A DNA stretch of 60,547 bases from an uncultured Candidatus Saccharibacteria bacterium (GCA_964487135.1 CAZAOU010000003.1:1-60547), one strand, 5' to 3'; shown: positions 32,999-37,822, numbered from the stretch's first letter. The notes: generated by a model not told the origin, from the sequence alone. Translations and numbers: made by a program.

Positions 32999-33406
32999 AT
33001 GAATAAATACAAGATCAATGTTATTGCCCTTATAAAGAAAGATAATGTCTTTATTTTGGGTAAAAAAAAGAAACAAGAAAACCATCCATTGAGTGGTTTG
33101 TGGCATATTCCTGGAGGCAAAGTATGTGAAGACGAAAACGAAGAAGACGCTTTAAAAAGAGAAATGAAAGAGGAGATTGGTGTTGAAATAAAAGTAGATA
33201 AATTCCTTGGTGAAAGAATAGATGAGAATAATCGACTAAAATTTAAGTGGTATCTTTGTAGTCTGCCATCAAACAATGTAACAGCTGGAGGTGATTTAAC
33301 CGAAATAAAGTATGTATCGGCAAAAAATCTAATCAAAGAATCTTCTGTTAATGAAGGACGGTATTGGCCACGGGAGGTTCATGAATATATAAGTTCTTTA
33401 CTTTAA
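32999..33406 (+). CDS. NUDIX hydrolase
   Basis: WHIPGGKVCEDENEEDALKREMKEEIG (Nudix box). Confidence 0.9.
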   Translation: MNKYKINVIALIKKDNVFILGKKKKQENHPLSGLWHIPGGKVCEDENEEDALKREMKEEIGVEIKVDKFLGERIDENNRLKFKWYLCSLPSNNVTAGGDLTEIKYVSAKNLIKESSVNEGRYWPREVHEYISSLL

Positions 33407-34615: not shown

Positions 34616-35005
34616 TTATATTCCAAAAAATTTGCGAATTTTCTCTTCCTCGCTCTCCATTGTACTCCCATGCGCCATTCCTTTCAAATGAAAAAGGCCG
34701 TGGATAAATAAAAAAACAAGGTAATTTTTTGGTGATCGTTTAAATTCTTTAGCTTTTCTTATTAAAGGTTTTTCACAAAAAATTATTTCACCTGAATCTT
34801 TATCTAAAGGAAAACTTAAGATGTCTGTAGCATAATCTTTTTTACGCCATTGTTTATTTAGTATTCTGGCTTTTTTTTCTCCAACAAAAGTCACACTTAG
34901 GCAGTACTTTTTTCCTAAAACTTTGTTTTTTATACGCAAAAAAAGCTCCTCATTATATTGAGGAACTTTTTTTGTTGTTTTTGAGAATTCTAAAGATTTG
35001 AGCAT
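34616..35005 (-). CDS. ybeY: rRNA maturation RNase YbeY
   Basis: LNKQWRKKDYATDILSF, IHGLFHLKGMAH. Confidence 0.93.
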   Translation of the reverse strand: MLKSLEFSKTTKKVPQYNEELFLRIKNKVLGKKYCLSVTFVGEKKARILNKQWRKKDYATDILSFPLDKDSGEIIFCEKPLIRKAKEFKRSPKNYLVFLFIHGLFHLKGMAHGSTMESEEEKIRKFFGI

Positions 35006-35247
35006 TATCTGCGAGAAGTTTCAGGAGCTTTTCCAAGTTTTACAAGCTCCTCCATTTTCGATCTTCTTTCAAGTGAAGAAAGTGTTTTCTTTTTTGTTAC
35101 AAATTTAGATTTATTTCTATCTTTGTATCTAATGCTTCTAACACGCCTAAGAATTCCAGCTTCTTGGACTTTTTTTGTGAATTTTCTTATGAGGCTTGTA
35201 TTATGCTCGCCTCCGTTTTTTGTTACTTCAACATTTACTGTTTGCAT
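35005..35247 (-). CDS. Probable divergent 30S ribosomal protein bS21
   Basis: Basic ~80-aa protein, VEV.KN..E...LIRKFTKKVQEAGIL..VR..RY resembles the bS21 pattern; ATG at 35247 preferred over the TTG at 35256. Confidence 0.55.
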   Translation of the reverse strand: MQTVNVEVTKNGGEHNTSLIRKFTKKVQEAGILRRVRSIRYKDRNKSKFVTKKKTLSSLERRSKMEELVKLGKAPETSRR

Positions 35248-35304
35248 AGGGAGCAATTATATCACAATTAGCCATTTTTGCAATCACCCCATATCTACCT
35301 ATAT

Positions 35305-36552
35305 CTAAGGCAGTTTTTTAAGATGGGATATTAGATTGTCTAATAAGACTGTTTCTTGGGACATAGTAGACATCTTGCGCACAACCACACTTCCTTCCAT
35401 AGCTTCTCTTTGTCCCATCATAATGATGTAAGGAATACCTATTTTTTCTGCATGCGCGAGTTGTAAAGAAAGTTTATCTTTTGAAAGAGCTTGATGAACA
35501 TGAATATTGGCTTTTCTAAGATTTTCAAGTAGTGACAAGCTTTTTAATTTTGCATCAAAGCCAATTTGTATGTAATAAAACTTTATTTTTTGTTCTCGTT
35601 TTTTCTTTTCTACTTGTTTTATGAAGTGGGGATGTATAAGAAGGGCCATTCCAAATGCTGGAACATCTTTTTTACCAAGAGCTTTTTTGGCTAGAGAGTT
35701 GTATCTTTCACCAATTCCAAAAATTGTTGTCTTTCCATTTTTTTCTCCTCTAATTTCGCAAATTGTTTCGGAGCAATAACTTCGTGAACCAATAAGTGAG
35801 TGACATATTTCGTAAGGAATTCCGAGGGATTCAATATATTCAAGAACTTGTTTAAAGTGGTTTCTGCTAGATTCTGAAAGATATGTCATTGGTTTTGGTG
35901 CATTTTCTTGAACCTCTTTGCATTTCTCGTGTGAACAGTTAAAAAGAGAAGTAATATCTTTTTTTATTATATTTCGGCAATTTTTTTCTAGTTTTAGTCC
36001 TTCTTTTGATACATATGTTGTTAATTCTCTTAAGAATTTTGCATACGACTCTTTGTCGCCAATAGAATTTATGGCTATTGAAAAATTTGTATCAGGATAC
36101 CTATCTTTAAGTATTACAAAAGATGTTTCTATGGCTATTGCTTCTGAAACACTTCCACTACCGCCAATTATTTCTAGGTTAAATGTTTCTTCTTCAGCAC
36201 TTTTTTTCATGTGAGGGTTACCCGAAAGAGGTCCTTCATAAAAACCCATTATTGGAAATGGTAAATCTGCGAATTTTTTATCAGTAAAAGATCTAAGTAG
36301 TGCTAATTTTTCTTCCAAAAATCCACCAAACCTCTCACTTTTTTCAAAGAAAGGGTGGAGTGTTTTGAGATGAGATTCATTAAATTTTTTAGCCACAGAA
36401 ATGTCGGCTTTTTCTACTTCTACATGTGGGAGGGGTGAAAAAGCGTAATGAGATGCTATTTCTGTTGCTTTTATTATTTCTGGCGAGACGATTCTAACTT
36501 CTTTTTTAATATTTTTTTTATTTATCTTAGACGGTTGTTTTTTTGTTTTCAT
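35305..36552 (-). CDS. Degenerate histidyl-tRNA synthetase-like protein
   Basis: HisRS layout with GIGERYNSL and an intact anticodon-binding domain, but catalytic motifs eroded. Confidence 0.75.
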   Translation of the reverse strand: MKTKKQPSKINKKNIKKEVRIVSPEIIKATEIASHYAFSPLPHVEVEKADISVAKKFNESHLKTLHPFFEKSERFGGFLEEKLALLRSFTDKKFADLPFPIMGFYEGPLSGNPHMKKSAEEETFNLEIIGGSGSVSEAIAIETSFVILKDRYPDTNFSIAINSIGDKESYAKFLRELTTYVSKEGLKLEKNCRNIIKKDITSLFNCSHEKCKEVQENAPKPMTYLSESSRNHFKQVLEYIESLGIPYEICHSLIGSRSYCSETICEIRGEKNGKTTIFGIGERYNSLAKKALGKKDVPAFGMALLIHPHFIKQVEKKKREQKIKFYYIQIGFDAKLKSLSLLENLRKANIHVHQALSKDKLSLQLAHAEKIGIPYIIMMGQREAMEGSVVVRKMSTMSQETVLLDNLISHLKKLP

Positions 36553-36555
36553 GAA

Positions 36556-37155
36556 TTATTTGTTGAATTCTGCTTTACCCGGAAATGTTCCCGCTTCTGC
36601 TAGTGGAAACAATCTAAATACTGCTCGCCCTGTTATTTTATCTAATGATAGAGGTCCCCATATTCTTGAATCTGAACTCGCTTCTCTGTTGTCACCCATC
36701 ACAAAATATTCATCTTCACCAAGACTTACAGTGACGCGAGTATCTCTTAGAGAGTGAACATAATCTTCTTCTAACATGAATCCATCAGGATATTTTTCGT
36801 TTGTTATGAACACTTTATTTCCATTAACTGAAACAGTTTCTCCTGGGAGGCCTATAACTCTTTTTATGTAGTGTTCGTTTGGAGCTGTTGGCGGTTTAAA
36901 AACAACAACATCACCTCTTGAAGGCTTTTCAAAACGATATGAAATTTCATCTACGATAAGGTAGTCACCGTTTTGAAAAGTGGGTTGCATTGAACTTCCA
37001 ACAACTATAAAAGGTTGGGCTATGAATATTCTTATTGGAATTAGAATAAAGATGACGATAAATGCAACTTCTTTAACTTCTTTGAAAAATTCTCCCACTA
37101 AACTTTTTTTAGGTGTGGTATTTTTTTCTACTCCGAATATTGCTTCGTCTTCCAT
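36556..37155 (-). CDS. lepB: Signal peptidase I
   Basis: VVGSSMQPTF, RGDVVVF, YIKRVIGLPGE, MGDNREASSDSR; ATG at 37155 preferred. Confidence 0.96.
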   Translation of the reverse strand: MEDEAIFGVEKNTTPKKSLVGEFFKEVKEVAFIVIFILIPIRIFIAQPFIVVGSSMQPTFQNGDYLIVDEISYRFEKPSRGDVVVFKPPTAPNEHYIKRVIGLPGETVSVNGNKVFITNEKYPDGFMLEEDYVHSLRDTRVTVSLGEDEYFVMGDNREASSDSRIWGPLSLDKITGRAVFRLFPLAEAGTFPGKAEFNK

Positions 37156-37240
37156 ACGACAACATGATAATATAGTAGAGCTTCTTGACACAAGGGCATA
37201 TAGAATTTTCAATTTTAAATTAGAATTTTTTTAAAAATAA

Positions 37241-37822
37241 ATGGCAGTAATAATTGTTGGATTAGGAAATCCCGGAGAGGAATATAAATACACAAGACAC
37301 AACACAGGAATGATTGTTGTTGATGCTCTAGCAAAAGAATTTGATGCGGGAGAATTTAAGATGGATAAAATAACATCTTCAATGCGTTCTAAAACAGAAG
37401 ATTTTATTTTTCTTAAACCTCAAACTTTTATGAATAAATCTGGGGTTGCTGTTAAACCTTTAATAAAATCAGAGAAAGGCGCTGAAAAATTAATTGTAAT
37501 TCACGACGATCTAGATTTGCCTCTAGGAAGTATCAGAATTTCTTTTAATAGAGGATCTGGTGGGCACAGGGGAGTAGAATCAATTGTTCGTGCTATTAAA
37601 ACAGAAGCTTTTGTGCGCATTAGGGTTGGGGTTTCTCCTCAAACTGCTTCTGGAAAAACCAAAAAACCAAAAGGTGAAGAGAAAGTAGTGAATTTTATTT
37701 TGAAAAAGTTTAAAGATGATGAATTAAAAGAACTTAAAAAGGTTTCCAAAAAAATTGCAGAGGCAATAACTGTAATTGTTGAAGAAGGAAGACCAAAAGC
37801 AATGAGTCTCTATAATAGTTAG
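37241..37822 (+). CDS. pth: Peptidyl-tRNA hydrolase
   Basis: IVGLGNPG..Y..TRHN.G, KPQTFMNKSG, IHDDLDL, GSGGHRGVES. Confidence 0.97.
   Translation: MAVIIVGLGNPGEEYKYTRHNTGMIVVDALAKEFDAGEFKMDKITSSMRSKTEDFIFLKPQTFMNKSGVAVKPLIKSEKGAEKLIVIHDDLDLPLGSIRISFNRGSGGHRGVESIVRAIKTEAFVRIRVGVSPQTASGKTKKPKGEEKVVNFILKKFKDDELKELKKVSKKIAEAITVIVEEGRPKAMSLYNS

Follow-up and report, generated by a model that had tools for sequence, protein, structure and literature searches.

What is a histidyl-tRNA synthetase (HisRS) kept for once the residues needed to activate histidine have been lost from it? The question is raised by a gene on the minus strand of a window of 60,547 nucleotides (nt) from an uncultured Candidatus Saccharibacteria bacterium (GCA_964487135.1 CAZAOU010000003.1:1-60547), the product of which (P0001, hereafter D) was described in the original prediction as a HisRS paralog with eroded catalytic motifs and an intact anticodon-binding domain (ABD). 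The results point to a displaced and catalytically dead ortholog of the synthetase, held under strong purifying selection, which most likely still binds tRNA-His specifically, judging from the residues that it has conserved. The same genome carries a live HisRS that is reduced to a bare catalytic core. For the role of D, the account preferred here, to which about an even chance is given, is that of a free-standing, non-catalytic factor that binds or senses tRNA-His and whose role is older than the shrinkage of the live enzyme.

The fate of the catalytic residues was followed in an alignment of the D-family profile to E. coli HisRS, the numbering of which is used for the enzyme. The arginine of motif 2 (R113) has no counterpart in D, where the loop reads GPLSGNPHMKK versus RxERPQxGRxR; that of the HisA box (R259, in LVRGLDYY) is replaced by G255, which is invariant in the D family, and that of motif 3 (R311) by P308. 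In the RPE-T box (E83, T85), which binds the alpha-amino group of histidine, E83 is replaced by K82 and the box of D reads L-E80-E81-K82-L-A, while Q127 has become T123. E131 and Y288, imidazole contacts in the E. coli HisRS structures, are both kept, as E127 and Y284. The strings on which the original prediction was built are all present in the protein, namely LEEKLALLR (residues 79-87), YEGPLSGNPHMKK..TFNLEIIG (105-130), LIGSRSYC (253-260), GERYNSL (281-287) and AFGMALLIHP (299-308), and its view of D as a pseudo-synthetase holds, since neither the RPE-T box nor any of the three ATP/adenylate arginines is left. Because these are gone, histidine activation by the known mechanism is not expected in D. 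On the NCBIfam hisS model TIGR00442, D reaches 130.8 bits, with the cut-off at 286.75, and its match is limited to profile positions 123-404; the search of its own genome gave 130 bits. In this score and in the missing residues it differs from the bacterial enzymes, and to judge from its sequence it cannot be expected to make histidyl-adenylate.

Nonetheless, D resembles bacterial HisRS (TIGR00442; S. aureus 1QE0, E. coli 1KMM, T. thermophilus 4RDX) in its three-domain architecture and in its fold. The N-terminal part of the core contains the motif 1 region, LEEK where RPE-T would stand, a GPxxGNPH loop replacing that of motif 2, and FNLEIIG, and the C-terminal part contains LIGSRSYC as a HisA box without R259, GERYN as the HisB box, and a motif 3 without its arginine. 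The insertion domain, which in HisRS clamps the acceptor arm, aligns over its full length with those of S. aureus and E. coli HisRS; the apparent loss of the domain in one genome (G028) is a masked stretch that translates as X and not a deletion. Bacterial HisRS are also the closest solved relatives of D (S. aureus 1QE0, 1.9e-27), and with the family profile the match reaches 1e-47 over residues 30-414. A structure model, one of the checks proposed for this gene, has the full HisRS fold (AlphaFold2, pLDDT 85, pTM 0.82), with a Foldseek match to 4rdx at 1.6e-24 and VIA-align Z-scores of 21-25. In this model the ABD is oriented differently from that of crystal structures (root-mean-square deviation about 19-20 Å over both domains), but a monomer model cannot fix this orientation.

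It is clear that the erosion of the motifs is not chance decay, because the ratio of nonsynonymous to synonymous substitution rates (dN/dS) between close relatives is 0.02-0.07 and the same pattern is found across homologues; D is under strong purifying selection. Database searches return 470 proteins that match D at E<=1e-5, with the eroded pattern common to the homologues, 55 of them, once aligned, have a mean column identity of 57%, and the reading frame is intact in all genomes examined. The most conserved part of D is the ABD, with a top-residue frequency of 0.74. The two halves of the core (0.66 for the C-terminal and 0.62 for the N-terminal one) and the insertion domain (0.65) come next, and the tail is last (0.28). 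The claim of an intact ABD is borne out by the sole Pfam match in D (HGTP_anticodon, PF03129, residues 338-413, 6.8e-15), a search in which tRNA-synt_His was not matched. Invariant in this domain are G380, Q381, E383, R392, Q399 and T401, and the spacing of E383, R392 and Q399 (9 and 7 residues) is, by motif register and not by a printed alignment, that of E388, K397 and Q404 of T. thermophilus HisRS, which read G34, G36 and U35 of tRNA-His (PMC4357726).

A second, canonical hisS, for which the original prediction had advised looking, was found when the whole assembly (711 kb, 35 contigs, 97% complete) was searched with TIGR00442. This gene (P0002, hereafter L), on contig C9, is the only one of the assembly with canonical HisRS catalytic motifs: RPEMT, FRYERPQRGRRREHWQ / FRYERPQRGRRREHWQLNCD, RGQTYY, GGGRYD and a GFGMGD motif 3, with FRYERPQRGR as motif 2 and the R-G-x-x-Y-Y signature present. 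With 251 bits on the hisS model it covers profile positions 2-165 and 246-320 but leaves 166-245 and 321-406 unmatched, L having neither insertion domain nor ABD; Pfam tRNA-synt_His matches it at 2e-38. Its open reading frame (ORF) stops directly behind the motif 3 helix, with the next gene only 3 nt further on, and no separate ORF for a live-type ABD or insertion domain was found elsewhere in the assembly. The model of L is a compact class II core (pLDDT 76, pTM 0.78).

The origin of L is indicated by a full-length allele from a relative, the best relatives of which in the PDB are the archaeal and kinetoplastid enzymes of T. acidophilum (1WU7, 252 bits) and T. brucei (3HRI, 242 bits). These have the RPEMT and QxNxD signatures in common with L; they are about 430 amino acids (aa) long, whereas L, at 258 aa, stops after the motif 3 helix and has no insertion domain. 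Since the closest relatives are 1WU7 and trypanosomatid HisRS, and since the unusual GFGxGD variant of motif 3 is common to L and the solved active enzymes 1WU7 and 3HRI, L is by its sequence relationships an archaeal-type xenolog and presumably active. The tRNA-His of the genome has a GUG anticodon, an encoded G-1, C73 and CCA, of which the L core, as predicted from its domain content, can read only the G-1:C73 end. Because L is a bare catalytic core, D is, as far as the gene content indicates, the only HisRS-type anticodon reader of the cell. Mini- and microhelices with G-1:C73 are substrates of HisRS, and the anticodon is ignored by the archaeal enzyme of A. pernix (PMC9976931); for this reason, a bare archaeal-type core may suffice, by analogy, to charge tRNA-His alone.

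The term paralog, with the duplication that it implies, does not fit D. A canonical hisS of bacterial type (B-type) is the sole HisRS in three relatives (G043, G053 and G031) that lack the dead form, where it occupies the slot pth|lepB-hisS-bS21-like-ybeY-ftsA, and active B-type HisRS and D have the insertion domain in common and ABDs nearly identical in pattern. Because B lies in the same slot and has these features, D is, on sequence and synteny, the vertically inherited ortholog of the ancestral bacterial-type hisS of the order, and instead of a paralog it is better called an ortholog that a xenolog has displaced. The bS21-like gene and ybeY, which the original prediction named as neighbours, offer no functional clue; they adjoin the active B-type gene too and belong to the inherited hisS synteny. 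For telling dead from active genes the TIGR00442 score and coverage were used, because the E-value of the D-family profile (A1) cannot split D from active B-type HisRS, the scores forming a continuum. In the proposed course of events, D would have lost histidine activation after the archaeal-type HisRS had taken over the charging of tRNA-His from another locus (truB|hisS-exonuclease). In the families of G058 and G038, the live partner of D (G058:C12:10422-11687 and G038:C1:35609-36889) is a third type of HisRS, with GISIGLTR or GVSVGVDR as motif 3 and RFDQT or RFDLT replacing RPE-T, and D thus coexists with at least two different imported synthetases.

The truncation of L has a history of its own. 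L was obtained from 19 of the 21 genomes of this genome's own GTDB family (the remaining two are 71% and 84% complete), in three architectures: full length (n=7, 404-424 aa), without ABD (n=9, 298-347 aa) and core only (n=3, 258-270 aa, this genome included), and the truncated forms all end at the same place. Across the order, 301 sampled genomes, a tally that includes the unpublished genome G267, yielded 19 more ABD-less L genes in 12 further families, which brings the total to 31 genomes in 13 GTDB families, and D is present in 31/31. The best 120 database relatives of L are likewise all without ABD. The ABD-less alleles form one clade (Shimodaira-Hasegawa-like approximate likelihood-ratio test, SH-aLRT, 100), within which the core-only alleles are nested (SH-aLRT 93). 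The tree of D tracks taxonomy and genus labels while that of L does not (G000-G020), and approximately unbiased (AU) tests reject their congruence with p = 1.7e-4, 1e-64 and 2.7e-4, for groups that were named after the trees had been seen. The L locus, truB|L-exonuclease, is a conserved locus different from that of D, with the same flanking genes for all alleles. Because the trees are incongruent and the flanking genes unchanged, the truncated allele has most likely spread laterally by displacing the full-length allele from this locus, with D passed on vertically. Convergent evolution of the ABD-less clade was also considered and is rejected, since the differences between the two allele classes run through the entire core and are not confined to the surroundings of the deletion.

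Two side observations concern the number of HisRS genes. Some genomes (G099, G240, G293 and G141) give two live-type matches, both full-length in G099 and G141 and both ABD-less in G293; true duplication or contamination of the bins (at 1-5%) could account for them. Two others of the same order, G107 (99% complete) and G022 (92%), have no match to hisS TIGR00442 at E<=1e-18 and none to the D/B profile at E<=1e-10, and apparently carry no recognisable HisRS of the three types.

What D does can be approached from the known geometry of the enzyme. In the solved complex of T. thermophilus HisRS with tRNA, acceptor end and anticodon are both held by a single subunit, and the contacts of its partner are limited to G-1 and the D-stem (PMC4357726). 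With this canonical geometry, a tRNA bound to D would point into the dead pocket of D itself. The preferred reading is therefore put in these terms: D would bind tRNA-His canonically, with GUG on its own ABD and the acceptor arm on its own insertion domain and remodelled pocket, probably as a homodimer, and would not charge it. It may act as a holder, buffer or sensor of tRNA-His and perhaps also of the histidyl or imidazole group, given that the equivalents of E131 and Y288 survive and a residual imidazole or histidyl subsite is possibly left. This job would be older than the shrinkage of L and independent of it. Indeed, a gene of the B/D lineage is found in nearly all of the sampled genomes and is absent beside full-length L only in G069, G137 and G101, and among the columns of the D alignment none tracks the ABD status of L, the only one with disjoint residue sets being variable.

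Several points weigh against a free-standing binder or sensor. The binding of tRNA-His is read from conserved residues only, and no output domain, fusion or conserved partner gene was found that would explain how a sensor signals; no homologue of 728-2075 aa, as expected of long fusions, appeared at E<=1e-30, which is weak evidence, and the 120 homologues listed are all 390-439 aa long. The old pocket differs among distant subfamilies of D, which leaves a conserved ligand site uncertain. The two modules for tRNA binding that are missing from L are precisely those still present in D, and D is retained in every genome with an ABD-less L; this complementary anatomy and retention fit a cooperative two-protein enzyme at least as well.

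Such a two-gene HisRS is the strongest rival, although we consider it less probable, at about one chance in four. In it, D would be an obligate, non-catalytic tRNA-binding subunit that provides the binding of anticodon and acceptor arm in trans to the 258-aa core of L, an arrangement that would have let L lose first its ABD and then its insertion domain. The anatomy is indeed complementary, with L a core only and D carrying both modules, no free-standing live-type ORF for either module exists in the assembly, the ABD is the most conserved domain of D, and D has a Lys-rich N-terminal tail, tails of this kind occurring on tRNA-binding cofactors. The presence of D in all ABD-less genomes of the 13 families would also agree with it, but carries no weight because D or B is found in nearly all sampled genomes: D is kept equally beside full-length L, with 3 exceptions only, and co-occurrence has no discriminating power. 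Moreover, no residue of D changes with the architecture of L, the trees of the two proteins are significantly incongruent, and D is of bacterial and L of archaeal type, with about 24% identity in the alignable part. In G058 and G038, the live enzyme found with D is of another type, and since D and L are xenologs and a second live type exists, one would not expect a class II heterodimer interface to be conserved between them; in the canonical geometry, furthermore, the ABD serves the active site of its own subunit. A complex prediction of the 258-aa L with D gave no verdict (score 0.00) and is not used as evidence either way. On this reading, which we would not favour, two unrelated genes would together make up a class II synthetase, an alpha-beta enzyme like PheRS or GlyRS that arose recently as a xenolog was captured and each protein lost what the other kept, D gripping tRNA-His and L doing the chemistry; the truncated allele would then have spread laterally through at least 13 families of Patescibacteria.

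It is improbable that D is still an enzyme, whether for some other reaction of tRNA-His or its charged form, for example a transfer, hydrolysis or modification, or for a non-canonical aminoacylation. The idea draws on the state of the old pocket, which in the close subfamily has not been randomised but remodelled to a new invariant set (E80, E81, K82, P108, G111, N112, H114, E142, E282, R283 and Y284 in family alignment A1) and has turned from basic to acidic, and on the retention of the imidazole-site residues E127 and Y284. However, the distant lineages of D (G058, G038, G027 and G023) have other residues at these positions and keep only the [ED]-[EQ]-[KR] pattern, R-Y/F and, in most, the acidic equivalent of E131, which argues against a new conserved catalytic activity in the pocket. 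In addition, all three ATP-binding arginines are lost, and no known catalytic motif is recognisable with Pfam or NCBIfam.

That D is a functionless, decaying relic, as its lost catalytic motifs and the presence of a live xenolog might suggest, is very improbable and is already contradicted by the selection data, namely the intact frame, the low dN/dS and the column identity given above, together with its near-universal retention among the genomes sampled from the order. Finally, a HisZ-like role in regulating histidine biosynthesis can practically be set aside: HisZ is the classical dead HisRS paralog and D gives weak NCBIfam matches to its models (E ~1e-3), but it stays far below the cut-offs of all HisZ models (TIGR00443 and the PRK12292 series), the best of them scoring 17.3 bits versus a cut-off of 643 and TIGR00443 giving no match, D derives from the order's own B-type hisS, and neither D nor L is a HisZ because no hisG (TIGR00070) exists in the 97%-complete genome, the control search being positive in 14/14 genomes. 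The original prediction had set HisZ apart by its lack of an anticodon domain, and this criterion has exceptions, since HisZ of Geobacteraceae retains the domain (PMC2923632); the separation from HisZ stands here on the missing hisG. NCBI nonetheless names many homologues of L 'ATP phosphoribosyltransferase regulatory subunit', though this genome has no hisG.

Among known systems, HisZ is like D a catalytically dead derivative of HisRS (VIA Z-scores of about 16 to 1usy, 8oy0 and 6ftt), and D differs from it in having no hisG partner, in its independent origin from the hisS of the order and in its conserved anticodon readers. The HisRS-like domain of the eukaryotic kinase GCN2 is described in PMC11363354 as a dead HisRS body with an ABD-like domain that binds uncharged tRNA. 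D is structurally similar to this domain as well (VIA Z-scores of about 16 to 8t7t, 9cbs and 9f58); the GCN2 domain is joined with a kinase and further domains in one protein and has no specificity for tRNA-His, whereas D is free-standing, no long fusions having been found, is bacterial and has kept the His-specific anticodon readers. The beta subunits of PheRS, which contain a dead class II core, and of bacterial GlyRS offer another parallel, as the anatomy of L and D suggests a similar division of labour between a small catalytic protein and a larger protein with tRNA-binding modules. D and L are xenologs with incongruent trees, and the parallel is an analogy, not a membership of the same class.

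The features of D, its neighbours and L are collected in Table 1. The tail of D has pLDDT below 50 at residues 5-15 of the model and varies from 0 to about 45 aa in length across the homologues. Upstream, lepB belongs to the same operon, with 3 nt between its stop and the start of D, and pth is divergent from this operon; downstream the order is bS21-like, ybeY and ftsA. The synteny of lepB, bS21-like, ybeY and pth is conserved among relatives with D or with active B-type hisS. The bS21-like ORF has no Pfam match at E<=1e-3, and it adjoins hisS or D on the downstream side in every relative checked. A stand-alone Nudix hydrolase of 135 aa (32999-33406, plus strand) adjoins ftsA.

Table 1. Coordinates of D, its domains and neighbouring genes (numbered in the window), and of L (numbered in contig C9).
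Feature	Position	Strand	Basis
D (P0001), dead HisRS ortholog, 415 aa	35305..36552	minus	single ORF; stop 35305-35307
D N-terminal tail, aa 1-22, Lys-rich, variable, disordered	36487..36552	minus	pLDDT, conservation
D pseudo-catalytic core, N part, aa 23-155	36088..36486	minus	alignment to E. coli and S. aureus HisRS
D insertion domain, bacterial HisRS type, aa 156-250	35803..36087	minus	INSIGDK...KKD...HFKQVLEYIESLGIPY
D pseudo-catalytic core, C part, aa 251-312	35617..35802	minus	LIGSRSYC, GERYN, motif 3
D anticodon-binding domain, HGTP-type, aa 324-415	35308..35583	minus	Pfam PF03129
lepB, signal peptidase I	36556..37212	minus	Pfam Peptidase_S26, 6.7e-48
bS21-like ORF, 83 aa, basic	35005..35256	minus	downstream of D
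ybeY endoribonuclease	34616..35005	minus	Pfam YbeY, 2.2e-23
pth, peptidyl-tRNA hydrolase	37241..37822	plus	Pfam Pept_tRNA_hydro, 3.3e-54
L (P0002), live HisRS, 258 aa, starts MSEEKK	C9:23908-24681	minus	whole-assembly TIGR00442 search

Literature searches on HisRS of Patescibacteria, or the Candidate Phyla Radiation (CPR), found no publication that describes the dead family or its minimal partner L, and the ABD-less and core-only forms of L and the probable lateral spread of the truncated allele are new. The reuse of tRNA-binding or amino-acid-binding scaffolds is shown by HisZ and by the HisRS-like domain of GCN2. Here, a whole CPR order keeps its original hisS dead and under very strong purifying selection, with the His-specific anticodon readers in place, which implies a function centred on tRNA-His. 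For the annotation of these genomes, the consequence is that the synthetase is to be found under the name hisZ and not under hisS. L is, as far as found, the smallest natural HisRS (254-260 aa, with neither insertion domain nor ABD), and it is widespread. If its core charges tRNA-His alone, it would be a natural test of the 'operational code', in which the acceptor end suffices for identity; if it needs D, the pair would be a newly evolved two-subunit synthetase.

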